Below, in pieces: positions 2,323 through 63,835 of a stretch of 64,000 nucleotides of DNA. The stretch is from Ignavibacteriales bacterium (GTDB taxonomy: Bacteria; Bacteroidota; Ignavibacteria; UBA10030; UBA6906). Within the stretch, counting starts at the first letter, position 1, and every line of letters starts with the position of its first letter. The translations under genes were made by a program, and so were the position numbers. The stretch is from the NCBI GenBank assembly GCA_037441705.1, contig JBBIRR010000001.1:226447-290446 (forward strand), in the 5' to 3' direction. The notes below the pieces were generated by a model that was given only the letters and a program-made list of their open reading frames with translations, made no database searches and was not told the origin of the DNA.

Positions 2323-4782
2323 TCAGCGCAGCAGAACCATTTTTCTTGTCTCCGAAAAACTGCCGGACTGAACTCGGTAGAGGTACACACCCGTCGCCAG
2401 CGTACCGCCCATCGCATTCTTTGCGTCAAACACGATTTCGTACTTTCCCGCTGTCTTCCACTCGTCAACAAGCGTCGCCACCTCCTGACCCGTAATGTTG
2501 TACACCTTCAGTGTCACACGACCGTCCGCGGGAATGGCGTAGCGAATCGTCGTGGAAGGGTTGAACGGATTGGGATAGTTCTGCTCGAGCATGTACTTCG
2601 TCGGGATGGTAGCAAGGGGTTGCGGATTGAACCCAACGCCGACCTCCTTGATCCACAGTTGCGTGACGATGGCCGAGCCTTCGCCAAGACTGTTGATCGC
2701 GATGGTCACGTCCCCATTGGCATGTACCTCTTGGGGGAGACGGCGAAAGCCTGTTGCTGCGGGTGTTGGACCAACGGTCATCGGCTCGCCAAGGCGGACA
2801 CCGTTGGCGGTCAATTCTTGAAGCCGCCGCACGCCGTCTCCTGCGGCGAACTCTGCGGCAACTTCGTACTCGCCGGTCGGCTTCAGTCTCGTGAAGCGAT
2901 ACTGCACCGACGATGCGTGCTCGTTCGCTGTCTGCGATGGAGTGTTGCCCCATCGGACAGCGCTTCCCTGAACGAGATGGGCATCGTCCGTCCGGTGCTC
3001 GCTGCCGCAATCTTCGTGGTAATACAACGGCAGCGTGAAGCGGGTGTTGGAAAACAGAGGCTCGCCGCTGTAGGCAGAGGCCGCCCCGAGTTCGTAGCGG
3101 TAGGTGCCGGCGGACACCTGCGTACCGTCGTCGCCCCGTCGATCCCATAGCAGGCGCTTCTCTCCGGCATTCATCCACGACGAGGTCAGGGTGCGGACGA
3201 GCCTATTCTGTTCATCGTAAATCCGGGCTGTTACGCTGGCAACATCGGTCAGCACGAAGCGGCATGCGACCGTGCTGACATCGGCATCGGCCTGGAACTC
3301 GATCGCCTTCATTTTCACGCCGAGCTTTCTTCGCTGCGCCCCGCTCGCGTCGTCCCACCGCTCCACCGCAAACACCTGATCGAACCCGGTCCAGTAGTTT
3401 CCCTCTCCCTCAATCACAACCTTCGCAAACGGAATGTCGATATGACCGAGTCCCGCGTACGTCTCGTCTCCACCTTCGATGTCCAACAGATCGAGCGTCG
3501 GCGTGAACTTCAGAATCTGCGACCTCACACTTTCAACCACATAGACCTGCCCGAAGTGATCCGTCTTGAGTGACGTGAAGTACTGACGGAAATTGCCCCG
3601 GTACTCACGAACAAGCGTGAGGGACGTTCCTTCGTCGGCAAAGACACGGATGCGGTTTGCAAGCTTATCCACGACGTAGAGCAGCGCATTGTTCGCGCCG
3701 TTCCATCGGCCGACCGCGATGGAGCTTGGTGTTGAGAAGCCTTCAAAACTTGCCACAAGGGAATTGCGCAGCGTACCGGCCGTGTATTTGAGAATCTTGT
3801 TCTCCACACCATCAGCCACATAGAGAAGATCATCCTGCGTATCGAAGGGCGTACCGTTATCATTGATAGCGAGGTCGGTCGGGTTCGTCACGGTATAGAT
3901 CTGATGACGATGCTGCAGCTCGATGTTATCGCCCGTGCCGACCAACTTCAGGACGACGATGCGTTTGTTTGCCGGCTGTCCGACGAACACGTTTCCGTCA
4001 GCATCAACCGCGATGCATGAAGGTCCTTGAAGAGGATAGGCTTTGATCCAGCGATCCATGTTTCCGTAGAGGATGCGGTCCCATTCGGGATCGAGAACAA
4101 GTTGAATGTAGGTTGCCGAGATCAGCCTGCGCCCGCTTGCATAGCGAAGGGAGATGAACGAGGCGGTGTGTTCGGGCAAGCCGAACAGGACACGATCGAG
4201 ACGCGAGCGTGCAATGCGCTCCGTCAGCCGTCCGATGCCGTGTTCGCGGCTCACAGCGACCGGAATGAACGTTTCGCCGACGGAGACGCCACCGCCGACA
4301 GTTTGAGGCGAGGGCGCGCCGGTGACGGCAGCCGTGCTCCATTCGGCGGGGAGAGAGCCGCCGGCAATCGTCCAGCGCCCTCCTACCTTTTCGAAGAGGA
4401 GTCGCTCGCCCGAGGCAAACTCAGCCGATGCCGCGCTCCCCTGAACCCTTACGCGGCATCGTTGAAAATCGGCGGCAGGCAATGCCGTTGCCGGTGCGTG
4501 CGCTCCTGTGGACAACGCATCACCTGCCTGCCTGCTCAGCACGGCCTGGACGTGCTGAGGATCTGCAAAGAAGAAGGGCACGTGTTTTCGCTCGACCGCA
4601 CTCGTGCCACCACCATTGGCCCGCAGCTTATCCACGATAAGCTGAATCTCCGCCTCATCGGAAACACGTGCCCAGTGTGCCCCCAACCGCTCCGGCGTGC
4701 TCGGCTCGCCCCCGCGAATTGTGCTGCACACACTCACGCTCATCACCATCACCGCACACAACTGTGTCGTCTTCATACTCAT
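2323..4782 (-). CDS. Secreted NHL-repeat beta-propeller protein with T9SS C-terminal sorting domain
   Basis: N-terminal signal peptide. Repeated NHL-like blades (NVFVGQPANKRIVVL, LLYVADGVENKILKY, LLYVVDKLANRIRVF, QVYVVESVRSQILKF). The C-terminus carries the canonical Por_Secre_tail (LEQNYPNPFNPSTTIRYAIP...GVYLYRVQSGSFSETRKMVLLR). Confidence 0.75.
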   Translation of the reverse strand: MSMKTTQLCAVMVMSVSVCSTIRGGEPSTPERLGAHWARVSDEAEIQLIVDKLRANGGGTSAVERKHVPFFFADPQHVQAVLSRQAGDALSTGAHAPATALPAADFQRCRVRVQGSAASAEFASGERLLFEKVGGRWTIAGGSLPAEWSTAAVTGAPSPQTVGGGVSVGETFIPVAVSREHGIGRLTERIARSRLDRVLFGLPEHTASFISLRYASGRRLISATYIQLVLDPEWDRILYGNMDRWIKAYPLQGPSCIAVDADGNVFVGQPANKRIVVLKLVGTGDNIELQHRHQIYTVTNPTDLAINDNGTPFDTQDDLLYVADGVENKILKYTAGTLRNSLVASFEGFSTPSSIAVGRWNGANNALLYVVDKLANRIRVFADEGTSLTLVREYRGNFRQYFTSLKTDHFGQVYVVESVRSQILKFTPTLDLLDIEGGDETYAGLGHIDIPFAKVVIEGEGNYWTGFDQVFAVERWDDASGAQRRKLGVKMKAIEFQADADVSTVACRFVLTDVASVTARIYDEQNRLVRTLTSSWMNAGEKRLLWDRRGDDGTQVSAGTYRYELGAASAYSGEPLFSNTRFTLPLYYHEDCGSEHRTDDAHLVQGSAVRWGNTPSQTANEHASSVQYRFTRLKPTGEYEVAAEFAAGDGVRRLQELTANGVRLGEPMTVGPTPAATGFRRLPQEVHANGDVTIAINSLGEGSAIVTQLWIKEVGVGFNPQPLATIPTKYMLEQNYPNPFNPSTTIRYAIPADGRVTLKVYNITGQEVATLVDEWKTAGKYEIVFDAKNAMGGTLATGVYLYRVQSGSFSETRKMVLLR

Positions 4783-10223: not shown

Positions 10224-11555
<1,332 letters not shown>

Positions 11556-11611
11556 CACTCTCGCGTGGGCCGTCCCGCTACCCGGCGGAGCGGCCCACAG
11601 GTATCCGCGGC

Positions 11612-13570
11612 ATGAAGCGACGGCACAGCGTGGTCTTGCTTGTTGCAATCTTTTTTGAGGTTGCCTTTGCACAGCATGACCTGCACGAGTTGGCCCGAAC
11701 GGAAGCAGAAGCGTACGCGCGGCGATCACGCGTACGGTTCCACACGCAGGACGAGCGCGGTTTCGACGTCACCTCCTACAAACTCGACCTCAACATCACG
11801 GTTGTCCCCGGCTATCTCCGGGGCGTCGTAACGCTGCACGCTCGCAGCACCACCGCGGGGCTGACGGCGATCTCGCTCGACCTCATGAATTCGATGACGG
11901 TTGATTCCGTGATCTGTGCCGGCGCTGCCGCTCGGTTTATCCAGCACCCCACTACCGTGTTCATTGAACTCAACCGAAGTTACGGTTACGGTGAGATGGT
12001 GGTGCTGGATGTGTATTATCGGGGCGTTCCGACCAGCACGGGCTTCGGAAGTTTTGAATTCGGCTCACACCCGGGAGGTCCGTGGGTTTGGACGCTGAGC
12101 GAGCCGTATGGTGCTCGTGACTGGTGGCCGTGCAATGATCATCCTGCCGATAAGGCTGACTCCGTGGATATGCTGGTTACGTGCAGCAGGGATTTCAAGG
12201 TTGCATCGAACGGACGGCTCATTCGCATCACCAGCAATCCGGACAACACGCATACCTACCATTGGGCCGAACGCTACCCGATAGCAACGTACCTCGTTTT
12301 CCTCTCCTTGACCAACTATGCGGAGTTCACCGACTGGTTTCACTACACTCCGACAGACTCCATGCCCATTGTCAACTACATACTTCCCGAACACCTCGCA
12401 GTTGCGCAAGACAGCTTTCGCGTCGTGAGCGATATGTTGAGGATTTATTCGGAGACGTTCGGGCTGTACCCGTTCATCACGGAAAAATACGGCCACGCGC
12501 AATTCGGCAGAGGCGGAGCGATGGAGCACCAGACGATGACCTCGCTTGTGCGGGCAGCGTTCACCCAATCGGCACTCGCACACGAGCTTGCTCATCAATG
12601 GTTCGGCGATCTGATCACATGCGCAAGCTGGCGTCATCTCTGGCTTAACGAAGGCTTCGCGTCGTACGCTGAGGCGCTCTATTACGAAAAGCAGTATGGA
12701 CGCGAACACTATCGCTCGGCTCTTCGCAGTAGCATGGCCATCGCCAAGGCAGCCCGCGGTTCCGTAATCCGACCGGACACGACCGACATCAGCACTTTGT
12801 TCGATCAGGCGGCAGTCTATGCTAAAGGAGCGGCTGTCCTTCACATGCTGCGCTATGTGCTCGGCGATTCGGCGTTTTTCCGCGCTCTGCAAGCCTACAC
12901 ATCCGATGCACGGTTTCGTTACGGAGTTGCAACGACGGAGGATTTCCAGGGTGTGTGTGAAGCAATTGCGCAGCAGCCGCTTGACTGGTTCTTCCAGCAG
13001 TGGTTGTACGGCGAGAACTACCCGCGGTACACGTACACGTGGAACGCCCTCCCCGACACCGATCGACAATGGCGTGTCGACATCACCATCAAACAAACCA
13101 CCGGCACGTCACGTCCAGCGTTCTTCGTGATGCCGCTCGATGTGAAACTATCAGGTTCGACGCGCGACACGACCGTAACGGTGTTCAACACCTACAACGG
13201 TCAAACCTTCAGCCTTCAACTGGAATTTCCGCCGGAGCGGGTGGAACTTGACCCGGAGGAGCGAATCCTGAGGGATGTACTCCCATCAAACGACGGCGAG
13301 CTTCCAACGTCGTTTCGGCTTCTGCAAAACTATCCGAATCCGTTCAACGAGAGTACGACGATCGCTTACGAGATACCAACGCGAACGCATGTTGTTCTCA
13401 CCGTCTACGACGTTCTCGGGCGCCTTGTGGCAACGCTTGTGAATCGCGTCGAGGAACCGGGACATAAAACCGTTCGCTTCGACGCCGCAGACAACGCAAG
13501 CGGTGTGTACTTGTGCAGGCTGCACGCGGCGGGCTTTGCGGCATCGCGCAAGCTTCTCCTTCTCAAATAG
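11612..13570 (+). CDS. M1-family zinc aminopeptidase with T9SS C-terminal sorting domain
   Basis: GAMEH motif and HELAHQWFG...NEGFASY zinc site. Signal peptide from MKRRHSVVLLVAIFF (ATG 11612). C-terminal LLQNYPNPFNESTTIAYEIP...VYLCRLHAAGFAASRKLLLLK Por_Secre_tail. Confidence 0.85.
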   Translation: MKRRHSVVLLVAIFFEVAFAQHDLHELARTEAEAYARRSRVRFHTQDERGFDVTSYKLDLNITVVPGYLRGVVTLHARSTTAGLTAISLDLMNSMTVDSVICAGAAARFIQHPTTVFIELNRSYGYGEMVVLDVYYRGVPTSTGFGSFEFGSHPGGPWVWTLSEPYGARDWWPCNDHPADKADSVDMLVTCSRDFKVASNGRLIRITSNPDNTHTYHWAERYPIATYLVFLSLTNYAEFTDWFHYTPTDSMPIVNYILPEHLAVAQDSFRVVSDMLRIYSETFGLYPFITEKYGHAQFGRGGAMEHQTMTSLVRAAFTQSALAHELAHQWFGDLITCASWRHLWLNEGFASYAEALYYEKQYGREHYRSALRSSMAIAKAARGSVIRPDTTDISTLFDQAAVYAKGAAVLHMLRYVLGDSAFFRALQAYTSDARFRYGVATTEDFQGVCEAIAQQPLDWFFQQWLYGENYPRYTYTWNALPDTDRQWRVDITIKQTTGTSRPAFFVMPLDVKLSGSTRDTTVTVFNTYNGQTFSLQLEFPPERVELDPEERILRDVLPSNDGELPTSFRLLQNYPNPFNESTTIAYEIPTRTHVVLTVYDVLGRLVATLVNRVEEPGHKTVRFDAADNASGVYLCRLHAAGFAASRKLLLLK

Positions 13571-29846: not shown

Positions 29847-30695
29847 CTAAGGACTCTTCTTCGGCTTCATCATCCTGAATACTTCCTTCAACTTCTCTCT
29901 CGGCATCACCTGCGCTAATGTGTTGAACTGTCCCGATTGCAGCCGTTCGCCGCCGTCGATCGTCACGCACTCCCCCGTGATGTAGGAAGAGAGGTCGGAC
30001 ATGAGGAATGCGGCAAGGTTGGCAAGCTCTTCGTGTTGGCCGAACCGGCCAAGCGGGACTTTCTTCTTGTACTGTTCCACAAGTGAAGCATCGCCCGGCA
30101 TCAGTCTCGACCACGCACCTTCGGTGGGAAACAATCCGGGCGCGATGGCGTTGAGACGAATGCCGTACGGACCCCATTCCGTTGCGAGCGACGTCGTCAT
30201 GGCATAGACGCCCGCTTTCGCACACGCCGACGGCAGGACGAATGCCGAGCCGGTCTGTGTGTAGGTCGTGACGATGTTCAGCACGACGCCTGGTCGTTTG
30301 TTCTGGATGAGATACTTGCCGAAATGCTGCGTGCAATTGAACGAACCGATCAGGACAATATCCACGACCGCTTTGAAGGCATTGAAACTCAAGTCTTCGG
30401 AAGCAGAAAGAAAATTCCCCGCCGCGTTGTTGACCAGCCCATCGAGCGAACCGAATTCGCCGACGATCCGGGCAATCATCTCCCCAACTCGGTCATACTC
30501 CCGGACATCGACGACATGCGTGAGGACGGTTTTGCCGTTCGCGCCGATTTCTTTTGCTGCCCTGTTCAACTTCTCCTCCGTCCGTCCGCAAATGGCGATG
30601 CGCGCACCAAGCTCGGCAAAGCGTTTCGCCATCGCGAGTCCCAGACCGCTGCCGCCGCCGGTGATGAGAATGGATTTGTTGGAGAGTGTAAGCAT
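29847..30695 (-). CDS. SDR-family oxidoreductase (2,4-dienoyl-CoA reductase-like)
   Basis: ITGGGSGLGLAMA Rossmann motif and YAMTTSLATEW (catalytic Y-x3-K region), with DECR-like overall similarity. It lies within the beta-oxidation cluster. Confidence 0.75.
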   Translation of the reverse strand: MLTLSNKSILITGGGSGLGLAMAKRFAELGARIAICGRTEEKLNRAAKEIGANGKTVLTHVVDVREYDRVGEMIARIVGEFGSLDGLVNNAAGNFLSASEDLSFNAFKAVVDIVLIGSFNCTQHFGKYLIQNKRPGVVLNIVTTYTQTGSAFVLPSACAKAGVYAMTTSLATEWGPYGIRLNAIAPGLFPTEGAWSRLMPGDASLVEQYKKKVPLGRFGQHEELANLAAFLMSDLSSYITGECVTIDGGERLQSGQFNTLAQVMPREKLKEVFRMMKPKKSP

Positions 30696-30699
30696 TGTA

Positions 30700-31317
30700 G
30701 ATTGGACTCCACCTCACATGTGATTCTCAGGAAGGTGGAGTCCATCTGCCCGGTACTGTGATTGTTGCACAAACTCCTCCATTGATGGAAACATACCGAG
30801 AACATCGCTTGTTCGAACAAACGAGTTCTTTCTCACTCCGATATACTCCCGATAGCTTGAATATTCCCAATCCTCCAATTTCTTCACCAATCCACTCCGA
30901 AGAAAATCTTGACAGATCTACATCACCGCTGTCGCGAGGTAATCCTCGTGTTGCACAATCTTCGCCCCGGTGTGATGTTGGAACAAACTTCCATGCCGAT
31001 TGAATCGAGCGCTGATCGCCCTTGTGTGCCAGCTTAACAGCACACCAATATTCGCATTCACCGTTTCGACATTCTTCGTCATGACTTGAGCAACAAAGTG
31101 AAAATGCGTCGGCATCAGGCAATAGGCGAGCGTGTCAATCAAGCCACTTGCATAGTGAACGTATTTGCTGAGGAAATAGGAGTAGTTGCCGCGCTCTTTG
31201 AACACAATCTCATCGTTGTTTGAACGATTGTAAATATGGTAGTAGCAGTTCTGTTCGAGGTCCATGCGTTCTCTCCTATCAGATGGACTCCACCTCACGG
31301 AAGGTGGATTCCATCTG
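30700..31317 (-). mobile_element. Degenerate IS200/IS605-like (Y1 HuH, RAYT-like) transposase element bounded by palindromic REP-like hairpins
   Basis: Left hairpin at 30700-30750 (GGACTCCACCT...AGGTGGAGTCCATCTG). Right palindrome at 31280-31317 (CAGATGGACTCCACCTCACGGAAGGTGGATTCCATCTG). The two share the GGACTCCACCT core. Internal GC is ~45-50% against ~60% in the flanks. Confidence 0.65.
30714..31265 (-). pseudogene. Y1 (HuH) transposase pseudogene: catalytic-Tyr codon replaced by in-frame TAG
   Basis: The intact portion (ORF 30918-31298, ATG at 31265) reads MDLEQNCYYHIYNRS...AYCLMPTHFHFV...GSLFQHHTGAKIVQHEDYLATAVM*. Continuing in the same frame past the TAG gives ICQDFLRSGLVKKLEDWEYSSYREYIG...ENHM*. 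This aligns to the family C-terminus SRYIHLNPVKAGLV...EDWxYSSYRDY, with * where the catalytic Y should be. Confidence 0.6.
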
Positions 31318-31330
31318 AACTTGTGAGTCG

Positions 31331-31513
31331 TCAGCCTTTTTTCTCACTTGCTGCTTCGGTCGAATACGAAGCACTCAAATCGCGCACTGTTGTCTCAGTC
31401 TTCTTGAGAATGTAATCGATGCGCTCTTCTGGCCGCACTCTTGCCAGCTCGGAGGATACGGTCTCTTTCCAATCCCACACCTCGAGCTGCGCTTTAGATG
31501 TCTTCGGTTCCAT
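31331..31513 (-). CDS. Small hypothetical protein (60 aa) overlapping the 3' end of the PIN gene by 20 nt
   Basis: ORF only, no recognisable domain. Its position suggests a possible partner of the PIN protein. Confidence 0.3.
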   Translation of the reverse strand: MEPKTSKAQLEVWDWKETVSSELARVRPEERIDYILKKTETTVRDLSASYSTEAASEKKG

Positions 31514-32003
31514 AGTCCATTAGTTCCAATGGTGTGATAATTCTAATCGCTGAGGGGTAACCGTTCTTGATATTCACTTCACGAATCCTGCGCTCTTTGT
31601 TTACATTCGCTAAGTGCCTGTAGTTCCAGCTCAGGAGGTACTCGAAGCCGGAAACGACGCTAATCGCCACGTGATACGCATCGACAAGTTTTCTCCGGGG
31701 AATTATTTCCGCGAGCACGTAAGCCTCCGCAAGCCGTACAATCGCAGATGCATCAGTTATCTCCACTATCCGTATCCCGTACTCTTTGATGACGTTGAGC
31801 AGCATTCTTCGCCTCTCGGCGTCGTTGGTTGCTTCTATTTCCGCCAGTACGAACCTTGAGATCCACGCATCGTACTGCCCCGCCTTTACAAAGTCATCAA
31901 AAAAAGCACGAGTCACATCCTGCAGTTCAGGAACATCCTCTGCGTATAGGAAGTTGATCACAGAAGTGTCCAGATAGATTCTCGGCGGCTCGGACACGTT
32001 CAA
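31494..32003 (-). CDS. PIN-domain protein (VapC-like nuclease)
   Basis: N-terminal IYLDTSVI (first catalytic Asp), LAEIE (Glu) and DAYHVA (Asp) fit PIN-domain geometry. Non-ATG start (TTG 32003 or GTG 31997) immediately after the fadB-like stop codon. Confidence 0.6.
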   Translation of the reverse strand: MNVSEPPRIYLDTSVINFLYAEDVPELQDVTRAFFDDFVKAGQYDAWISRFVLAEIEATNDAERRRMLLNVIKEYGIRIVEITDASAIVRLAEAYVLAEIIPRRKLVDAYHVAISVVSGFEYLLSWNYRHLANVNKERRIREVNIKNGYPSAIRIITPLELMDYGTEDI

Positions 32004-34408
32004 TTCCTCAGCGGCTTCCCGTTCTTCAGCATGTACGCAAGCCGTTCCTGCGTCTTGCGTTCGCCAGCCAGGCTCAGGAACGCTTCACGCTCCAGGTCCA
32101 GAATGTACTGCTCGCTGACAAGAGTCTTTGCGGTCATGTCGCCGCCGCAGAGTACGTAGGCAAGTTTCGTCCCAACGTGCATGTCGTACTCGCTGATGCG
32201 GCCTGCGTTTTTCATCAGGTACATGCCTAACTTCAATGTTGCGAGCGCCGGCTCTCCTAATGCAGGAATGTCGGTGCGCGGCACGGGTTGCTTGTAGCCC
32301 TCTTTCACCATCGCCAGAACCGTTGCCTTGGCATCAGCAAGCAGGTAGTCTCTGTTCATCGTGATGCCGTCGGACGCGCGGAGAAAGCCCAGCTCCTTCG
32401 CTTCGACGGCGCTGGTAGAGACTTTCGCCATCCCGATTGTCTCAAACACGCGCTTGACCAGCGGGAAAAAATCCACGTCGGAATCTTTCGGCACGCCCTC
32501 GACCATGCGCACGAGCATCTCCTTGCATCCTCCGCCTGCGGGAATGATGCCGACGCCGACTTCGACGAGTCCCATGTACAGCTCCGCCGCCGCGCGGATA
32601 CGATCGGCGCCAAGGGCAAATTCACATCCGCCGCCCAGCGTCATGCCGAACGGCGCCGCGACCACCGGCCTAGGGGAGTACTTGAGCGATTGCGTTGCCT
32701 TCTGAAAGGCGCGCGCCATCATATCCAACTCATCCCAATCGCCTTCCTGTGCGGCCATCAGCATGATCATGATGTTGGCGCCGACGGAGAAATTCTCTCC
32801 TTCATTACCAACAACCAATCCTTCAAAATTCTTCCCGACCTCCTGCACGGCATAGTGTGTCATGGAAAGGATGTCTTCGCCGATAGCGTTCATCTTCGAA
32901 TGAAACTCCAGACACGCAACACCATCGCCAATGTCAATCAGACTCGCGCCTGCATTCTTTTTTATGACCTTGTTCCTGTCCTTGAACGACGGCAGGAGAA
33001 GCAGTCCGGGCTTTTCTTCGACAGGGACATGCTTTTCTGACTTCACATCAAAAAAGAACGTCGTGCCGTTGCGGCGTTCGTAAAATGTTTTCTTTCCCGA
33101 CCTGAGAAGCTGTTCGACAAGCTGCGGTATGGGCTTGCCATCTGCCTGCATCTTCTTCACGGAATCTTCAACCCCGATGGCGTCCCAGGTTTCGAACGGA
33201 CCGAACTGCCAGTTGAACCCCCAGCGCATGGCCCGGTCCACGTTCACGATGTCGTCGGAGATTTCCGGGATGCGATTGGCCGCGTAGAGAAGAACGTCAC
33301 GCGTTGTCTTCCAGATAAACTGGCCGGCGCGGTCGTTCGCATACGTCAGCATTTTCAGTCGCTCGGCCAGGTTTTCGATGTTCTTGCCGGTCTCGATGGA
33401 AGCGAACTTTGCTTTCTGTCTCGGTCGGTACTGAAGCGTAGCGTAGTCGAGCGTGAGAATCTCGTTTTCACCGGCTCCCTTCGTCTTCTTGTAGAAGCCC
33501 TGCTTCGTCTTATCGCCCAGCATCTTGTTCTCGACCATCTTCTGAATGAAGTCGGGGACGATGAACATCTCACGCATCTCGTCGTCGGGCACGGCATCGT
33601 ACAAATTCTTTGCAACGTGCACAAGGGTATCGATGCCGACCAGGTCGCCGGTGCGGAATGTGGCACTCTTCGGCTTGCCGGTTGCAGGCCCCGTGAGTTG
33701 ATCCACCTCTTCAATCGTGTACCCCCCTTCCAGCATCGTGCGGATAGCAGACATCATCGCAAAGACGCCGATGCGGTTGGCGATGAAGTTCGGGCGATCT
33801 TTGCAGTACACGATGCCCTTGCCCAACACGCGCTCGCCGAACGAGGCCATCGTCGCAACGACCTCGGGGAGTGTTTCGTTCGTCGGGATGATTTCCAGAA
33901 GCCGCATGTAACGCGGCGGATTGAAGAAATGCGTGCCGAGAAAGTGTTTACGAAAATCGTCGGACAGTCCCTGAGCGATTGCCGCAATGGGGATGCCCGA
34001 GGTGTTCGACGACACGATGGTGCCGGGCGTGCGCAGGGCATCAACTTTCTTCAGCAGCGATTGCTTGATGTCGAGTCGTTCAACGACAACTTCGATAATC
34101 CAATCAACTTCCTTGACCCAACCGAGATTGTCCTCGAAGTTCCCCACCGTAATGAGCCTGGCAAAGTCAGGCGAGTAGAACGCCGCTGGCCGCGCCTTTC
34201 GGGCCGAGTCAAGGCCGGCATTCACGATGCGATTTCGCACCGCCGGACTCGCAAGCGTCAACCCCTTCGCGGCCTCTTCCGGGGCGAGGTCGTTCGGAAC
34301 GATGTCGAGGAGATAGGAGGGAATCCCTGCGTTGGCGAGATGGGCGGCAATGGCCGAGCCCATCACGCCCGAGCCGAGGACGGCGACTTTAGTGATTGTT
34401 CCGATCAT
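32000..34408 (-). CDS. Bifunctional 3-hydroxyacyl-CoA dehydrogenase / enoyl-CoA hydratase (FadB/FadJ-like, dehydrogenase domain N-terminal)
   Basis: N-terminal NAD-binding VAVLGSGVMGSAIAAHLA and 3HCDH domains. C-terminal crotonase fold (VVAAPFGMTLGGGCEFALGADR). 802 aa. Confidence 0.85.
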   Translation of the reverse strand: MIGTITKVAVLGSGVMGSAIAAHLANAGIPSYLLDIVPNDLAPEEAAKGLTLASPAVRNRIVNAGLDSARKARPAAFYSPDFARLITVGNFEDNLGWVKEVDWIIEVVVERLDIKQSLLKKVDALRTPGTIVSSNTSGIPIAAIAQGLSDDFRKHFLGTHFFNPPRYMRLLEIIPTNETLPEVVATMASFGERVLGKGIVYCKDRPNFIANRIGVFAMMSAIRTMLEGGYTIEEVDQLTGPATGKPKSATFRTGDLVGIDTLVHVAKNLYDAVPDDEMREMFIVPDFIQKMVENKMLGDKTKQGFYKKTKGAGENEILTLDYATLQYRPRQKAKFASIETGKNIENLAERLKMLTYANDRAGQFIWKTTRDVLLYAANRIPEISDDIVNVDRAMRWGFNWQFGPFETWDAIGVEDSVKKMQADGKPIPQLVEQLLRSGKKTFYERRNGTTFFFDVKSEKHVPVEEKPGLLLLPSFKDRNKVIKKNAGASLIDIGDGVACLEFHSKMNAIGEDILSMTHYAVQEVGKNFEGLVVGNEGENFSVGANIMIMLMAAQEGDWDELDMMARAFQKATQSLKYSPRPVVAAPFGMTLGGGCEFALGADRIRAAAELYMGLVEVGVGIIPAGGGCKEMLVRMVEGVPKDSDVDFFPLVKRVFETIGMAKVSTSAVEAKELGFLRASDGITMNRDYLLADAKATVLAMVKEGYKQPVPRTDIPALGEPALATLKLGMYLMKNAGRISEYDMHVGTKLAYVLCGGDMTAKTLVSEQYILDLEREAFLSLAGERKTQERLAYMLKNGKPLRN

Positions 34409-34464: not shown

Positions 34465-34788
34465 TCATCGCAGCAAACGATCCTGCAGCAGCAGCTCGAT
34501 ATCCCTTCTTCCGTCCAGCACGCAATGGATGTAAACGTGCTTGCGCCCAATCCGGTAGACGATCCGATATGGTCGCGCATCGATCTCCTGAAACTCTGTT
34601 ACGCCAAACGCCAGGAGCTCCGGCGGGACGCGTCCCCGTTGCGGATCGGTTTCGAGCGTGCCTGCCAGCCGTTCGAGTTTTTCGATCAACGCGCTTGCCC
34701 GCGAGAACGATTCACTCTCCGCGACGTGTTTGAAGATGTCGAATAAATCCGCCTGCGCATCATCCGACATCATGACATGATACTTCAT
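34465..34788 (-). CDS. Type II toxin, ParE/RelE family
   Basis: 107 aa with a ParE-like C-terminal region (YRIVYRIGRKHVYIHCVLDGRRD). It overlaps the upstream Phd/YefM gene by 4 bp. Confidence 0.7.
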   Translation of the reverse strand: MKYHVMMSDDAQADLFDIFKHVAESESFSRASALIEKLERLAGTLETDPQRGRVPPELLAFGVTEFQEIDARPYRIVYRIGRKHVYIHCVLDGRRDIELLLQDRLLR

Positions 34789-35072
34789 AGCGAATGCTCA
34801 AAACGCTGCATGCGCTGTTTGAGATGAGCAAACGCCTGCCTGAGAGTCGTAAATCTCCCCTTACGAAAACTCTGGCTGCTTTGCGCCAGGATCTTCAGCA
34901 TCGCCAGTGTTTGCTGCTGCCGTTCGTACACCTTGACATCCTGCACGACAACCCTCGCTTCGCCGTTGTGCGTTACCACCAGGGTCTTCTGATTCTTGAC
35001 GATGTCACGGATCAGCTCCGATGCATGCGCCTTCAGATAACTGATGGGTTTGATGGAGTCGCTGAGTTTCAT
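34785..35072 (-). CDS. Type II antitoxin, Phd/YefM family
   Basis: 95 aa with a Phd/YefM-like N-terminus (ISYLKAHASELIRDIVKNQKTLVVTHNGEARVVVQDVKVYE). Confidence 0.7.
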   Translation of the reverse strand: MKLSDSIKPISYLKAHASELIRDIVKNQKTLVVTHNGEARVVVQDVKVYERQQQTLAMLKILAQSSQSFRKGRFTTLRQAFAHLKQRMQRFEHSL

Positions 35073-56614: not shown

Positions 56615-58672
56615 TTAACCACGTTGTGACCTCCAGAAATCATACACAGCGTACTGAGAACGTAGAGGAGGCTGACGATCCACTGTCCTGATTCGATTCT
56701 CCAACTTCTTGGTGATGACTCGAGCCTTTACGGTATCGCTCCACTGAAGTTCAAGAATCCTGAGAATCTTCTCGCGGAGTGTGGGATCGTAGATGGGGAA
56801 GGCGGTTTCTATTCTTCGATCGAGATTCCTCCGCATCCAATCGGCGGACGAGAGATACACCAGCGGCTCGCCGCCGTTGCAAAAGACAAACGCCCGTGCA
56901 TGTTCGAGAAACCGATCCACGATGCTGACAACTTCGATGTTCTCACTCATGCGTTTGAGACCGGGGATGAGACAGCAGATGCCGCGAACAATCAGTCGAA
57001 TCTGTACCCCGTCGCAGCTTGCCGCATACAGTTTCTGGATGATGCCGGGGTCCTCGAGAGCATTCATCTTCGCGAGGATATAGGCTTCACGTCCTTTGCG
57101 TGCTTGCTTCGCTTCTCGCTCAATCAATAATTCCAGTCGCTCGCGCATGGTAAAAGGCGCCACGAGTAAATGGTCGAAGTGCCCCTTCTTCCGATTCCGA
57201 CACAGAATGCCGAAGACTGCTCGGACTTCGGTGGTAAGCCGCTCATCGGCGGTAAAGAAGCCGAAATCCGTGTAAAGCGCCGCAGCGTTCTCGTTGAAAT
57301 TGCCGGTGGCGAGATACGCATAGAATCTCGGCGCGTCTTTCTCCACGCGTTCAACGAGACAGAGTTTGGTATGAACTTTCATGTTGGGCAGACTGTAGTG
57401 CACGCGTGCACCGGCCTTCTCCAGCTCTTCCGCCCAGAAAATGTTCGACTCCTCGTCGAACCGGGCTTTCACTTCAACGAATGCGGTCACCTCTTTCCCC
57501 TGCCGCGCCGCGCGCAGAAGCTGTTCCACAACGTTCGAATTCCGCGCAACACGATATAACGTGATGTTGATCGAACGAACCGCAGGATCGTCCGCCGCCT
57601 CGCGCAGAAAGCGCAGCACGCCATCGTATGCGTGATACGGATAGTGGGCCAGGACGTCCCGTGCACGAATGTCCTCGAACACACTCCCATCGCCTGTGTA
57701 CACCGGCAGCGGTACCATCGGCTCATAGATGAGCGCGGGCGCTTTGGGGTTGGGAAGCGTGAAGAGATCGTTGAAGTTATGGTAGCGGCTGCCCGGCACC
57801 AGATCATCCTCAGCAAGCTGAAAATGCTTCTGCAGAAATTGCAGCATTCTCTTCGGCATGTCCGTATCGTAGAGGAACCGCGACGGGGGACCTTCGCTTC
57901 GTTTCTTCAGGGCCTTCTTCACCTTCTGGAGCAGGTCGCCGCTGAACTCGTCGCCAAGCTCCAGCTCCGCGTCTCGCGTCAGCTTCACGGCGTACGCGCC
58001 GAGCACGTCGTGTTGCGGGAATACATCGTGCAAGCAAAGGCGAATAACATCATCCAGAAACACAACATAATGCCGGCCGTCCTCAGAAGGCAGAAGATGG
58101 AATCGCGGCGTCAGCGTGGAGGGAATCTCTACCAACACATACTGCTCGCCTTCCTTTTTCGTTTCGGCGGATGGGCGGCGAAGATGGACAACAAGATATA
58201 AAGCGCGATTGTGAAGGAACGGCGGCTGCTTGTCATCGCTGAGAAAGACGGGGGAGAGAAGGGAAAGAATGTGCTCACGGAAGTAGTTGCGCAGATATGC
58301 TTTCTGGTGCTCGGTCAGCTCATGCTCGCGCACAAGAAAGATACCTTGCCGGGCGAGATCTTTCTTTACCCTGTTGCGAAAAATATCGCCGAACTCCTCT
58401 TGCTGCAGCCATACGGCTTTCAGCAACCGCTTCAGCAGCTTGTCGGGTGCGATGTCCAGTTGCTTCTGGGTCTTCTTCTTCAGGCGGTTGAGGGCACGCA
58501 GCGATGCAACACGCACGCGAAAGAACTCGTCGAGATTGGACGACCAGATGGCGAGAAACTTGATCCTCTCGTACAGGGGCACAGTCGGGTCCGCCGCCTC
58601 CTGTAACACGCGATGATTGAAGGCAAGCCAGGAGAGATCTCGGTTCTTGAGGCGAACGTTATCCGCATTCAT
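56615..58672 (-). CDS. ppk: Polyphosphate kinase 1 (full length, second copy)
   Basis: 685 aa with all four PPK1 domains (N-terminal NRDLSWLAFNHRVLQEA, PLD-like HTKLCLVER and ...ATGNFN). Clearly divergent from the copy at 1-1853. Confidence 0.9.
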   Translation of the reverse strand: MNADNVRLKNRDLSWLAFNHRVLQEAADPTVPLYERIKFLAIWSSNLDEFFRVRVASLRALNRLKKKTQKQLDIAPDKLLKRLLKAVWLQQEEFGDIFRNRVKKDLARQGIFLVREHELTEHQKAYLRNYFREHILSLLSPVFLSDDKQPPFLHNRALYLVVHLRRPSAETKKEGEQYVLVEIPSTLTPRFHLLPSEDGRHYVVFLDDVIRLCLHDVFPQHDVLGAYAVKLTRDAELELGDEFSGDLLQKVKKALKKRSEGPPSRFLYDTDMPKRMLQFLQKHFQLAEDDLVPGSRYHNFNDLFTLPNPKAPALIYEPMVPLPVYTGDGSVFEDIRARDVLAHYPYHAYDGVLRFLREAADDPAVRSINITLYRVARNSNVVEQLLRAARQGKEVTAFVEVKARFDEESNIFWAEELEKAGARVHYSLPNMKVHTKLCLVERVEKDAPRFYAYLATGNFNENAAALYTDFGFFTADERLTTEVRAVFGILCRNRKKGHFDHLLVAPFTMRERLELLIEREAKQARKGREAYILAKMNALEDPGIIQKLYAASCDGVQIRLIVRGICCLIPGLKRMSENIEVVSIVDRFLEHARAFVFCNGGEPLVYLSSADWMRRNLDRRIETAFPIYDPTLREKILRILELQWSDTVKARVITKKLENRIRTVDRQPPLRSQYAVYDFWRSQRG

Positions 58673-61672: not shown

Positions 61673-61918
61673 GGAGCGAAGTCCGCAGTAAGCCTTCCAC
61701 CGCTCCACGTAGAAACGCCGCCCCGTTTTTCTTCCGCCGACACACTCGCGCATGCGGAACGCATGAAGCATGTGCCGTCCGCGCTACGCGAATTCCTTCC
61801 ACAATGTGTCACACACACAGAATCTGTCGGGTGGCATAGGTGTTGCCGTTCCCCTTTTTCCCGCGATGCATCAGCGCGCGGGCAATCCACATCTTACAAC
61901 CAATCAACGGGAGGGTGT

Positions 61919-63835
61919 ATGAAGCGTTTGGTCAGGAACCTGTGGTGTGTGTTTGTGGTCGCAGCAGGGGCGTTGCACGCCGTACGTGCCGATGACGACC
62001 CGAGTATCGTCATCACCTCACAGCCGGTCACGGTCGCTCGCGTTGGGCAGCCGTACGAGTACGACGTCGACGCCGTGGTGATTCGAGGCAGCGGCCTCAT
62101 CCTTTTCGAGCTGCGTGATGCGCCGGCGGGCATGACGATTGACCCGCTCAGCGGATTGATTCAATGGATGCCGACGCAAACGGGCGCATTTCGTGTGAAG
62201 GTGCGGGCGGAAATTGAAGATGACTCGCCCACCGATGGCGGGCATGCCGACCAGGAGTACACGCTGTTTGTGCTGAACGGCGCGCCGGCTGCGCTGCGCG
62301 GGACTGTTCGCTCGCTGTCAGGGGTTCCCGTCCCCAACGTCCGCCTTCGTCTGTTCGAAATCACGTCGGCTCATTTCGTATTTGGCACGTTCAGCGACGC
62401 GCAGGGACGCTACAGCTTTCCCTCGGTCAACCCCGGTACGTACGTCATGCGCGTGCAGCCGCGCGATAATCTCTTCGCCGATCAGTGGTACGATCGTGCA
62501 CAGCGTATCGAAGATGCGACGCCGATCCCTATCCCCGAAACGACTACCGTTACCATCAATGTAACGCTGTTGCCGCGGGATACGGTGCGTGATCGGTTCA
62601 CACTCTCAGGTACGGTGCGCGATAGCGCTGCCGCTCCGATTCATCGAGCGGCGGTGTTCATCTTTCGCGCACGTCAGCATGACGATCGGGACGCGTCGGG
62701 ATTCAACTTCGAAGGATTGGATGACCGCGATCGCGATCAGCGGCTCGAGGCAGTCGTCCTCACGGACTCTCTCGGCCGGTATCAGGCACTGCTTCGCTCG
62801 CGACGGTACATCCTAATGGCGTTCAAAGACGGATTCGACCGCCAGTTCTGGGATCACAAATCCACCATCCTCGAAGCCGATCGGCTTCGTCTCATCAGCG
62901 ACACGACAGGGATTGACTTTGATCTGCAGCGAACCGCATCGGCAAACGGGTCCATCTCCGGCACCATCACCGCTGCAGGCACAACCCAGCCTGTGTCGTC
63001 GCACGTGGTCGGGTTTCATCGTGCCACGCCGGACGGACGATTCTCGGGCTTCGTGCGTCACGCTGTAACGGACTCGGCCGGACGGTACACGCTTGCACGG
63101 CTACGGTCGGGTTTCTATATCGTGCTGGCACTGCCGCACGGAGATTTCCTCCCAACATTTTACGATACATCCGGCGGCACACTCCAGCTTGCACATGCCT
63201 TTCCCGTGCCTGTCTCGCAAGCGCCCGTCAGCGGCATCGATATCGGCGTCTTTCCGGATACGATCACCGGGATGAATCGCGTGCGTGGTATTGTTGTGCA
63301 GAACGGCCGTCCGCTGCAAGGCTCGATCATCTATGCCATCGCGCAACACAACGGCAATCCACTCGGTGCTGCAGTTTCGGAAAGCGACGGGCGCTTTGCG
63401 ATTGTGGGCCTGACGCCGGGCGCGTATCGCCTGCAAGCCATGAAACCCGGCTTCGCACAAACGATCACCACGCCGTTCACGCTCGTGCAGCAATCGGGCT
63501 TGCCTGCGACTGCAACGTCGAACATTACGCTCATCGAAAGCCCGACGGATGCGCGGCCCGGACAGGAACCCTTCGCGTTTCAGCTCATGCAGAATTACCC
63601 GAATCCTTTCAACCCATCAACCCGCATCACGTTCTCGCTTCATGTCGCTGGACTTGCGTCGCTGCAGGTATTCGACCTTCTGGGTCGGGAAGTTGCGGTG
63701 TTGGTGAATGAGGTCCTTCAACCGGACACGTACACGGTGGAATTCTCAGGATCGAATCTGGCCAGCGGCGTGTACTACTATCGTCTCAAGGCAGGCGGCT
63801 TCGTCGAGACGAGGAAGATGCTTCTGATTCGTTGA
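61919..63835 (+). CDS. Secreted multi-domain protein with carboxypeptidase-regulatory-like/Cna-B-like beta-sandwich repeats and T9SS C-terminal sorting domain
   Basis: ATG 61919 preceded by GGGAGG. Signal peptide MKRLVRNLWCVFVVAAGALHA. Repeated GxVxxxxGxPVPNVRL / ...DSAGRYTLARLRSGFY beta-sandwich units. C-terminal FQLMQNYPNPFNPSTRITFSL...GVYYYRLKAGGFVETRKMLLIR. Confidence 0.75.
   Translation: MKRLVRNLWCVFVVAAGALHAVRADDDPSIVITSQPVTVARVGQPYEYDVDAVVIRGSGLILFELRDAPAGMTIDPLSGLIQWMPTQTGAFRVKVRAEIEDDSPTDGGHADQEYTLFVLNGAPAALRGTVRSLSGVPVPNVRLRLFEITSAHFVFGTFSDAQGRYSFPSVNPGTYVMRVQPRDNLFADQWYDRAQRIEDATPIPIPETTTVTINVTLLPRDTVRDRFTLSGTVRDSAAAPIHRAAVFIFRARQHDDRDASGFNFEGLDDRDRDQRLEAVVLTDSLGRYQALLRSRRYILMAFKDGFDRQFWDHKSTILEADRLRLISDTTGIDFDLQRTASANGSISGTITAAGTTQPVSSHVVGFHRATPDGRFSGFVRHAVTDSAGRYTLARLRSGFYIVLALPHGDFLPTFYDTSGGTLQLAHAFPVPVSQAPVSGIDIGVFPDTITGMNRVRGIVVQNGRPLQGSIIYAIAQHNGNPLGAAVSESDGRFAIVGLTPGAYRLQAMKPGFAQTITTPFTLVQQSGLPATATSNITLIESPTDARPGQEPFAFQLMQNYPNPFNPSTRITFSLHVAGLASLQVFDLLGREVAVLVNEVLQPDTYTVEFSGSNLASGVYYYRLKAGGFVETRKMLLIR

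Follow-up and report, generated by a model that had tools for sequence, protein, structure and literature searches.

A probable RAYT-like pseudogene with flanking REP-type hairpins in a beta-oxidation operon of an Ignavibacteriales bacterium

The window, as we call the whole stretch of 64,000 nucleotides analysed here from an Ignavibacteriales genome (GCA_037441705.1), contains a beta-oxidation operon on the minus strand, and between two of its genes lies a short element that consists of an interrupted reading frame with a palindrome at each end. Judged from the sequence itself, the taxonomic placement is based on T9SS sorting domains and on fadB neighbours that are assigned to Ignavibacteria at 70% identity. 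In minus-strand order, the features of this region are the following:

32000 to 34408, minus strand: fadB-like 3-hydroxyacyl-CoA dehydrogenase/enoyl-CoA hydratase gene, 802 aa, upstream of the element (precomputed Pfam matches 3HCDH_N, 3HCDH and ECH_1)
31331 to 32003, minus strand: PIN-domain ORF overlapped by a 60-aa ORF; the two lie between fadB and the 5′ hairpin and are not part of the element
31279 to 31318, minus strand: 5′ (upstream) REP-type hairpin, TCAGATGGAaTCCACCT / TCCGTG / AGGTGGAGTCCATCTGA, 17-bp stem with one mismatch, 6-nt loop
31265 to 30921, minus strand: N-terminal part of the RAYT-like ORF (MDLEQ...ATAVM), ATG at 31265, 115 codons from the HUH core to the middle of helix alpha-D
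31098 to 31106, minus strand: HUH motif, codons 54 to 56, CAT TTT CAC (H-F-H), unbroken in the window copy
30918 to 30920, minus strand (plus-strand 'cta'): TAG stop at the catalytic tyrosine position, as placed by alignment to homologs and to Y115 of 4ER8
30917 to 30714, minus strand: in-frame remainder ICQDFLRSGLVKKLEDWEYSSYREYIG...ENHM, 67 codons plus TGA (30716 to 30714)
30699 to 30748, minus strand: 3′ REP-type hairpin, TGGACTCCACCT / 18-nt loop / AGGTGGAGTCCA, with a perfect core stem of 12 bp
29847 to 30695, minus strand: short-chain dehydrogenase (SDR) gene, 282 aa, downstream of the element and followed by thiolase, thioesterase and acyl-CoA dehydrogenase genes

The initial annotation had read the interrupted frame as an inactivated IS200-like Y1 transposase that ends exactly where the catalytic tyrosine belongs. 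The position of the stop is borne out by an alignment of 21 full-length homologs (176 to 209 aa), in which the TAG column is a near-invariant Y, and the column remains so with a larger set, in which at least 90% of 118 homologs have Y. The surrounding motif, which had been given as S-R-Y-I-H-L-N-P, is YIHQNP in the family. Upstream of it, H54-F55-H56 of the window copy falls on invariant or near-invariant columns, and the frame does continue past the TAG, as had been proposed, through 67 open codons that include the conserved segment EDWEYSSYREY. As TAG replaces the tyrosine codon while the C-terminal segment keeps its frame and neither hairpin has been lost, the description as an inactivated HUH/Y1 transposase gene stands. 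The 115-aa product is found exactly in public assemblies (P0004). Pfam Y1_Tnp (PF01797) scores only 14.2 bits (E = 0.05) with the N-terminal part, under its cut-off of 23, and the joined two-part sequence has no Pfam match, while several full-length homologs carry precomputed PF01797 matches. No further RAYT-like or Y1 gene was found in the 64-kb window, so there is no trans-acting candidate there. The element is also poorer in GC than its surroundings, by less than the approximately 45% against 60% first suggested: it has 47.0%, and its 5-kb flanks have 55.8% and 56.6%.

The classical IS200 part of that description, by contrast, did not survive. The NCBIfam profile REP_Tyr_transpos (NF047646) gave a match with E = 2.2e-9 and 37.4 bits against an equivalog cut-off of 80; judged by its sequence, the gene is a relative, and not an equivalog, of the E. 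coli-type RAYT. A PDB search with the joined window protein returned no match. With the family profile, the sole PDB sequence match was 4ER8 (E = 8e-5), and in this alignment the TAG column corresponds to Y115 of TnpA_REP and the motif Asn to N119, two residues whose roles have been described, Y115 being the catalytic one (PMC3479197). An AF2 model of the intact homolog P0002, which is 70% identical, has a pLDDT of 92.5 and contains the four-stranded sheet with helices, alpha-D lying over the sheet. The best Foldseek match of this model was again 4er8_A (E = 1e-8), followed by 2vjv, 2a6m, 2xo6 and 2f4f, which are IS608, ISDra2 and IS200 transposases with E of about 1e-4 to 1e-5. Given the Y---NP motif and the fact that 4ER8 is both the only PDB sequence match and the best fold match, sequence and model place the family in the class-2 RAYT/TnpA_REP branch and not with classical multi-copy IS200. 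The Y---NP signature itself is present in the family consensus but has been lost from the window copy.

Only one base separates TAG from TAC, which is the codon found at this position in the syntenic orthologs L004, L008 and L119. Nothing else was found in favour of a sequencing or assembly error in an intact transposase gene. The identical TAG is read in L002, a MAG from another sample (GCA_037444205.1), and in an independent Logan re-assembly. Furthermore, the family-invariant neighbours of the tyrosine are also changed (H118C and N120D), as is the near-invariant P121F, and a third ortholog has lost the entire motif by deletion. Thus, the independent assemblies and the further lesions in and around the motif exclude an error for practical purposes. 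It is also very hard to believe that translation continues past the TAG, through a suppressor tRNA or codon reassignment, and still yields a full-length active enzyme. It is true that the 67 codons past the TAG are open in frame both in the window copy and in L002, but such a run is unsurprising at roughly 6% divergence; in addition, the pN/pS of the post-TAG part is about 1.0 between these two copies, the metal-binding Asn and the adjacent His and Pro of the motif have been replaced, and the region is deleted in L003. Reassignment of TAG was rejected because this codon closes 10 of the 37 long ORFs of the window, those of both neighbouring genes included. A scan of the 64-kb window found no tRNA genes and hence no suppressor candidate there.

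The stop is accompanied by other damage, and it arose before at least two of the sampled genomes diverged. The motif reads *ICQDF in the window copy and *ICQNF in L002, so that H118C and P121F are common to both, while N120D and, at another position, S78W occur in the window copy only. L002 has a GTG start and an altered HUH motif (H54Q, giving Q-F-H), and L003 bears two deletions, of 7 bp and of 45 bp, the second of which takes out the motif; in L003, moreover, the N-terminus is frameshifted and lacks strand beta-1, and the 5′ hairpin is gone. In L008, the HUH motif has lost its second His (H-F-P). The pN/pS of the remnant is 0.46 to 0.59, against 0.054 to 0.065 in 6.2 kb of flanking genes, with a pN about nine times higher; a binomial test does not put a ratio near 0.5 significantly under 1 (p = 0.06 to 0.2), and the ratio is not 1 either. 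In nucleotide divergence, the remnant (0.048 to 0.062) lies somewhat under the four-fold sites of the flanking genes (0.06 to 0.10). The N-terminal part alone gives a pN/pS of 0.35 to 0.47, so the 115-aa fragment may still be under weak constraint. This HUH fragment might be kept for a job that does not depend on the tyrosine, such as binding to the REP hairpins, be it in DNA or in mRNA. The HUH motif is unbroken in the window copy, as is the beta-sheet core, the stop has lasted across at least one speciation-level split, and the pN/pS of the N-terminal part is below that of the post-stop part in both comparisons that involve the window (1.0 against L002, and 0.8). Nevertheless, we consider such a role quite improbable: the N-terminal ratio is not significantly below 1 (p = 0.05 to 0.11) and is about eight times that of the neighbouring genes, the first HUH His and the ATG are gone in L002, the frameshifted L003 lacks strand beta-1, and the putative target hairpins are themselves decaying or deleted.

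Both hairpin ends have been retained, as first reported, and each is stable when folded as DNA, the 5′ hairpin at -16.7 kcal/mol (z = -6.1) and the 3′ hairpin at -12.7 kcal/mol (z = -3.3). The 3′ hairpin, whose perfect stem pairs 30703 to 30714 with 30733 to 30744 and can be extended to 30699 to 30748, covers the final codons of the remnant together with its stop, and the end of the hairpin lies a few bases before the SDR ATG (30695). A sequence shared by the two palindromes had also been noticed, and both do contain GGACTCCACCT, which occurs four times in the 64-kb window with at most one mismatch, always in a hairpin arm, against 0.72 occurrences expected by chance. The hairpins of the window copy are decaying. 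In L002, the 5′ hairpin is the same apart from a different single mismatch, and every surviving 5′ hairpin has an uncompensated mismatch of its own. Rfam yielded no credible RNA family, either for the element at E up to 5 or for the whole window at the gathering threshold, and a promoter and terminator scan from 30400 to 32200 gave no signal, so the hairpins are not intrinsic terminators. REPs of E. coli stabilise upstream mRNA, and selection could in principle keep these hairpins rather than the gene, either as mRNA stabilisers of this type or as a translation-initiation context for SDR. In favour of this, both are stable, the 3′ hairpin lies 0 to 5 nt ahead of the SDR start codon in all filled loci, and its arm AGGTGGAG is purine-rich, like a ribosome-binding site. 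We nevertheless find it unlikely, given that neither terminator-like nor promoter-like signals are seen, that mismatches accumulate without compensation, that one hairpin has been deleted in L003 and that relatives with an empty site manage with a plain spacer of 17 to 37 bp.

This spacer also confirms that the element interrupts the operon, as the gap between fadB and SDR is merely 17 to 37 bp in L112, L117 and L118. The PIN-domain and 60-aa ORFs are, to judge from the compared sequences, a later insertion in the window genome only. The order fadB, RAYT-like gene, SDR is found in L004 to L006, L008 and L119, which represent three more distant lineages; L004 and L119 have the gene intact at this site, and in L008 its HUH motif is damaged. 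All six filled loci, which fall in two host clades, agree in site and orientation. In the tree of RAYT-like proteins, the window copy and L002 stand together as sister to P0005, P0003, P0123 and P0001, which mirrors the fadB tree. Thus, with orthologs at the same site in three distant lineages and a gene tree that follows the host tree, the gene is most likely an old, vertically inherited resident and not a recent insertion.

A non-vertical history should also be considered, in which an active element with a target-site preference entered the same fadB-SDR spacer independently in the window clade and in the clade of L004, L008 and L119. Y1 transposons such as IS608 and ISDra2 are target-specific, and the gene is not at the site in four related lineages (L112, L117 and L118 are empty, and L113 to L116 have other genes there). 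These include the closest outgroups of the window clade (L112 and L117) and a close relative of L004 and L008 (L113 to L116); by simple parsimony, two gains need only two events, against three for one gain and two losses. The junctions also differ between the two host clades, with the fadB stop TAG at or in the hairpin foot in L004 and L008 and a 10-nt spacer before the hairpin in the window clade. Against this, the six filled loci have the same site and orientation, the RAYT-like sequences group as a single clade that divides as the hosts do, no duplicate copy of the element is found in the window or in any retrieved locus, and loss is cheap for such elements, since Y1 excision is precise. 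We therefore regard two independent entries as possible but rather unlikely, and we retain old vertical residence as the more likely reading of this site.

The hairpin is by no means restricted to this site. It flanks every RAYT-like gene for which DNA was retrieved (L004 to L008, L019, L033, L065 and L119), and hairpins on both sides of the gene are also seen in L002 and in the window copy. Its family form is AGATGGACTCCACCT-loop-AGGTGGAGTCCATCT, with a stem that is a perfect 15-bp palindrome and a base-paired foot, AGA / TCT, instead of the GT[AG]G tetranucleotide of canonical REPs. In genomes other than the window genome, exact copies were found in 103 stretches; several genomes carry 4 to 13 of them, with the gene at only 4 of the loci, and open frames of 600 nt or more contain 19% of the copies but 71% of random sites. 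In those genomes, the hairpin is a dispersed, mostly extragenic repeat, and within the 64-kb window there are no copies beyond the element's own. Of the hairpin loci in GTDB representatives, none matched the window in blastn or tblastn comparisons. String searches for it in the literature and in supplements found only unrelated PCR primers. The proteins that share the hairpin are only 42 to 57% identical, and nearly all of them come from MAGs, assigned to Ignavibacteria, Kapabacteria, Bacteroidota and a few further phyla. REPs of Proteobacteria are species-specific, and a 15-bp REP stem that stays unchanged among highly diverged enzymes and hosts goes against the usual picture of fast REP-RAYT co-evolution. 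One could go further and propose that the AGATGGACTCCACCT hairpin and the enzyme of about 182 aa make up an undescribed RAYT subclass with a near-invariant REP, long resident in the beta-oxidation operon, in which the dead copy, or the 115-aa HUH fragment with its hairpins, is kept for an operon-level role. As a whole, we think this proposal improbable.

Taken together, the region from 30699 to 31318 on the minus strand is very probably a pseudogenised RAYT (class-2 TnpA_Y1) gene with two flanking REP-type hairpins. By analogy with the family, the HUH enzyme of intact members, of about 182 aa, would bind AGATGGACTCCACCT-loop-AGGTGGAGTCCATCT in single-stranded DNA and would cut and rejoin it through a 5′-phosphotyrosine on the Tyr of YIHQNP in helix alpha-D, while the HUH histidines and the Asn of YIHQNP would hold the metal. 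A change from TAC to TAG, in a common ancestor of the window genome and one or more other sampled genomes, removed the tyrosine and everything downstream, and gene and hairpins have drifted almost neutrally since. The window copy can yield at most a 115-residue fragment without the nucleophile, and it can neither move itself nor mobilise the hairpins. Its persistence may most likely be explained by harmless read-through inside a co-directional operon and by the death of the enzyme that could have excised the element precisely, at a site where the gene lineage is presumably old.

The window copy is a real but ordinary pseudogene; the intact relatives and the very uniform hairpin are more interesting. 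The main use of the finding is in annotation, where a disrupted RAYT-like gene is the proper label for the 115-aa ORF. Beyond this, the RAYT-like lineage is site-stable within a metabolic operon, and close relatives show it in intact, HUH-damaged, Tyr-less and empty states. This makes a small natural series for asking how long transposases of the domesticated type, and their hairpins, last after the loss of catalysis.

Among known systems, the TnpA proteins of IS200/IS605 (IS608, ISDra2 and IS200; class 1) share with this family the fold, the HUH and Y1 chemistry and a hairpin on either side of the gene, both oriented alike on the gene strand. However, class 1 proteins carry Y---Q and are about 150 aa long, and their elements occur in multiple near-identical copies, whereas the family described here has Y---NP and a longer C-terminal extension. 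Within class 2, subclass 2.6, which corresponds to Bertels RAYT group 5 and is found mostly in Bacteroidetes (PMC6006769, Table 1), is characterised by YIH[QN]NP, a median length of about 179 aa, an SS motif after the Tyr, the HuH context N-H-[LIV]-H and W-Q in beta-4 (PMC6006769). The family agrees with it in YIHQNP, in its length of about 182 aa, in the SS of ...DWEYSSY..., in its FCB-group hosts and low copy number, and in having non-canonical flanking structures with copies elsewhere in the genome. It differs in the HuH context (P-T-H-F-H-F), in beta-4 (S-L-F-Q, with F-Q instead of W-Q) and in its REPs, as those in the supplement of PMC6006769 are different and GGACTCC/GGAGTCC is absent there. 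Compared by published motifs, the family is a candidate member of subclass 2.6, or it may be a sister group known only from MAGs. TnpA_REP/RAYT of E. coli K-12 (4ER8) belongs to class 2, subclass 2.2 (Quentin et al. 2018). In contrast to it, the family here shares only about 15% identity, has a perfect 15-bp stem without the GT[AG]G foot and a low hairpin copy number, each genome having between a few and roughly a dozen exact copies, and its window copy is dead. Like E. coli TnpA_REP, in turn, it combines the HUH motif with a Tyr and then NP on helix alpha-D, followed by a D-W-x-[FY]-S segment, and its gene appears single-copy and site-stable, flanked by palindromic hairpins that are also dispersed and extragenic in genomes.

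The element on the minus strand consists of an interrupted RAYT-like gene between two hairpins, and a further pair of ORFs lies just upstream of it:

31331-32003, minus strand: PIN-domain ORF of 169 aa with an overlapping 60-aa ORF of no assigned family, GC 49.6%
31279-31318, minus strand: 5′ hairpin upstream of the ATG, 17-bp stem with one mismatch, 6-nt loop
31265 (ATG) to 30920-30918 (TAG), minus strand: RAYT-like ORF of 115 codons (MDLEQNCYYHIYNRSNN...HEDYLATAVM)
From the TAG to 30716-30714 (TGA), minus strand: in-frame remainder, ICQDFLRSGLVKKLEDWEYSSYREYIGVRKNSF...ENHM
30703-30714 / 30733-30744, extendable to 30699-30748, minus strand: 3′ hairpin, 12-bp perfect stem, 18-nt loop

These features bear out the initial annotation, which had described an ORF stopped by TAG, a frame resuming downstream and palindromes at both ends. 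The 3′ hairpin overlaps the last codons of the remnant and stops just short of the following gene's start codon, and both hairpins are stable as single-stranded DNA (−16.7 kcal/mol and z = −6.1 for the 5′ hairpin, −12.7 kcal/mol and z = −3.3 for the 3′ hairpin). Their arms are shared: the 64-kb window has four matches to the 11-mer GGACTCCACCT at up to one mismatch, against a chance expectation of 0.72, every one of them a hairpin arm, and a search for further hairpin copies across the window found none. The element was also said to be poorer in GC than its flanks, which holds, although the contrast (47.0% vs 55.8% and 56.6% in the 5-kb flanks) is smaller than the 45 vs 60% first given. As intact relatives likewise fall 8 to 10 points below their own genomes, low GC is a trait of the family and not a sign of recent arrival.

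The joined translation retrieved 193 relatives, mostly of 176 to 209 aa, from a collection of 5.8 billion proteins, and in alignments with 21 and later 118 sequences the stop column is the near-invariant Y of YIHQNP. A PDB search with the family profile gave one sequence match, E. coli TnpA_REP (4ER8, E = 8e-5), whose HUH histidines, Y---NP tyrosine and asparagine, and D-W-x-F-S segment align with those of the family; in 4ER8, the catalytic residue is Y115, the HUH motif is H59-M60-H61 and N119 is a metal ligand (PMC3479197). The proposal that the TAG occupies the position of the catalytic tyrosine is thus upheld by both alignments and by the match to Y115. In an AlphaFold model of P0002, an intact homolog 70% identical to the window copy (pLDDT 92.5), Y116 sits in helix 108-123, and a Foldseek search with this model placed 4er8_A first (E = 1e-8), followed by the IS608, ISDra2 and IS200 transposases. 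The window copy itself scores weakly against Pfam Y1_Tnp (14.2 bits vs a cut-off of 23) and NCBIfam REP_Tyr_transpos (37.4 bits vs 80). By fold and motifs, the lineage belongs to the TnpA_REP-type family.

The stop is genuine and old. A 115-aa product identical to that of the window is annotated in an NCBI assembly (372-kb contig) and, independently, in the Logan assembly of SRR11582170, whose locus (L001) holds window positions 30600-31400 without difference. In a different MAG (GCA_037444205.1, locus L002), the orthologous gene occupies the same position and has the TAG too, and the two 115-aa products differ at 13 positions. Syntenic orthologs that retain the tyrosine have TAC there, so a single C-to-G change created the stop. 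Reassignment of the TAG codon was considered and rejected, given that 10 of the window's 37 long ORFs end in TAG, among them the acyl-CoA dehydrogenase and short-chain dehydrogenase (SDR) genes of the operon, and that a search for tRNA genes across the window found none.

Beside the stop, IHQNP has eroded to ICQDF. H118C (CAT to TGT) and P121F (CCT to TTT) are common to the window copy and L002, whereas N120D is found in the window copy and not in L002; H118 and N120 are invariant across the 118-sequence alignment. L002 starts with GTG, not ATG, and has Q for the first HUH histidine. In a third ortholog (L003, from SRR12999147), a 7-bp deletion has frameshifted the N-terminus, a 45-bp deletion has removed the stop and the motif together, and the 5′ hairpin is missing. 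The 5′ hairpins of the window copy and L002 each carry one uncompensated mismatch, not the same one, and the 3′ hairpins of L002 and L003 also carry one. Nucleotide divergence is 0.048-0.062 in the remnant and 0.06-0.10 at four-fold sites of the flanking genes, while pN/pS is 0.46-0.59 vs 0.054-0.065 in 6.2 kb of flanking genes, with pN some nine times higher in the remnant. The remnant value does not differ significantly from 1 (p = 0.06-0.2); over the first 115 codons it is 0.35-0.47, and downstream of the stop it is about 1.0 between the window and L002. Selection is relaxed, and the overall picture is near-neutral drift since inactivation, possibly with some weak constraint left on codons 1-115. 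Thus, with the TAG on the tyrosine column, an eroded motif and relaxed pN/pS, the gene is the inactivated HUH/Y1 transposase gene first suggested. The syntenic ortholog P0005 (L008, 6001-6561) retains the tyrosine within an open frame of 186 codons, yet its HUH motif reads H-F-P instead of H-F-H; inactivation may have begun here independently and be at an earlier stage.

In this family, gene and hairpins are associated, and by analogy with characterized members (PMC3479197, PMC6006769) the intact enzyme would bind the hairpin in single-stranded DNA and cleave and join through a 5′-phosphotyrosine. The window copy has lost the nucleophile and its metal-binding Asn is eroded; without Tyr116 and helix alpha-D, its product would be expected neither to cleave nor to join, which should leave the copy immobile. 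The element runs in the direction of the operon and no terminator-like signal was found in it, so it should be transcribed through; any effect of the hairpins on mRNA stability or SDR translation is speculative.

The co-directional beta-oxidation cluster reads, in order, AMP-binding ligase, Phd/ParE, the fadB-like gene (802 aa), remnant, SDR, thiolase, thioesterase and acyl-CoA dehydrogenase; the nearest named relatives of the window fadB are from Ignavibacteria MAGs (70% identity). The PIN-domain ORF (Pfam PIN, 23.0 bits, slightly below the 23.6 cut-off) and its 60-aa partner separate the fadB stop from the 5′ hairpin in the window genome alone, being absent from this place in L002 and L003, and look like a recent toxin-antitoxin-like insertion, later than the remnant. 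Spacers of this operon gather small modules that vary among relatives (window 34465-35072; L004, L008, L112-L118), such as Phd/ParE, UPF0175/DUF3368, Uma2, a UPF0150 (HicB-like) gene, DUF6036, DUF433/DUF5615 and an HNH gene. In several relatives, a second, unrelated Y1 transposase gene (Pfam Y1_Tnp), absent from the window, lies directly upstream of fadB (L004 2897-3394; L113 3340-3783; L115 and L116 2596-3039); its motif YI[NR]NQ[DE]EHH resembles subclass 1.2 of Quentin et al. Elsewhere in the window are two genes for polyphosphate kinase and a number of Por_Secre_tail (type IX secretion sorting domain) proteins (36-1853, 56615-58672, 2323-4782, 11450-13570 and 61763-63835, jointly), which assign the organism to the FCB group.

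The site between fadB and SDR is filled by intact genes in L004-L006 (product P0123, 69-70% identical to the window copy) and L119 (P0003), and by the open H-F-P frame of P0005 in L008. In L112, L117 and L118 it is empty, with a gap of just 17-37 bp and no hairpin trace, which confirms that the element interrupts the operon, and in L113-L116 an unrelated UPF0175/DUF3368 pair occupies the spacer. For fadB, the tree reads (((window, L002, L003), (L112, L117)), (L113, (L004, L008))), with L118 outside, and in the RAYT-like tree the window clade is sister to {P0005, P0003, P0123, P0001}, the two together standing apart from the rest of the family (at most about 57% identical). We consider one old acquisition at this site followed by losses the probable history, and such losses would be cheap because the element excises precisely. 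A history of two separate site-specific gains takes fewer events, and the junctions are not alike in the two clades; for these reasons we favor the single acquisition with reservation.

A scan of one genome per GTDB species with the exact pattern TGGACTCCACC-N(3-30)-GGTGGAGTCCA matched 103 stretches, none from the window's own genome, and the commonest form was AGATGGACTCCACCT-N3-AGGTGGAGTCCATCT. Several MAGs hold multiple copies: at least 8 in Ignavibacteria CoA_1_bin.73, at least 13 in a MAG labelled Hyphomicrobiales, at least 6 in a Chitinophagaceae MAG and at least 7, with AT-rich loops of 17-18 nt, in the 4.5-Mb Kapaibacterium NRBC_bin_5. Just four of the scanned loci contain a RAYT-like gene, flanked there by hairpins. 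Because the copies are dispersed, mostly extragenic (19% inside open frames of at least 600 nt vs 71% of random sites), gene-flanking in these loci and varied in ways that preserve pairing (G2A in 8 copies, also C8G, A3G, C13T and C14T), the family behaves as a REP/RAYT system. One and the same 15-bp stem, AGATGGACTCCACCT, recurs in MAGs that bear the labels Ignavibacteria, Kapaibacterium, Chitinophagaceae, Cytophagia, Saprospiraceae, 'Hyphomicrobiales', Anaerolineales, Thermoflexales and Desulfobulbaceae (L009-L111), some of which labels may reflect mis-binning, and the enzymes that it flanks share only 42-57% identity. Such uniformity is unusual for REPs, and the hairpin sequence was not found in the searchable literature. 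A metagenome contig (L007 3070-7400, JGI 3300045276) has at least seven family hairpins, including variants with a compensatory C8G/G8C pair, within 4.5 kb around an intact gene that lies between genes for a DNA methyltransferase and a ResIII-helicase-domain protein. Hairpins also occur in frame inside RAYT-like genes (L065 2501-2527; P0054, residues 'VDGLHLQGGVHLP'), with the HUH motif on one side and the next helix on the other, recalling the REP insertions within genes described for subclass 2.4.

The finding is, on good support, an ordinary pseudogene of an already known kind of gene; two secondary points worth noting are that it has probably long resided within a metabolic operon and that its family has an unusually uniform REP hairpin. 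According to Bertels et al. 2017 (PMC5581495), most RAYTs are present in one copy and passed on vertically, and the conserved position of the lineage agrees with that picture. The closest solved relative of the family is E. coli TnpA_REP, and the Y---NP signature corresponds to class 2 in the scheme of Quentin et al. 2018 (PMC6006769, Table 1). Within this class, the family resembles subclass 2.6 (Bertels group 5) in YIHQNP, a length of about 182 aa, the SS motif, host range and non-canonical hairpins, but it differs in its T-H-F-H HuH context and F-Q motif, and the REP sequences given for that subclass differ from its hairpin. Judging from these sequence features, we classify the lineage as a RAYT-like family of class 2, close to subclass 2.6, with the window copy as its pseudogene.
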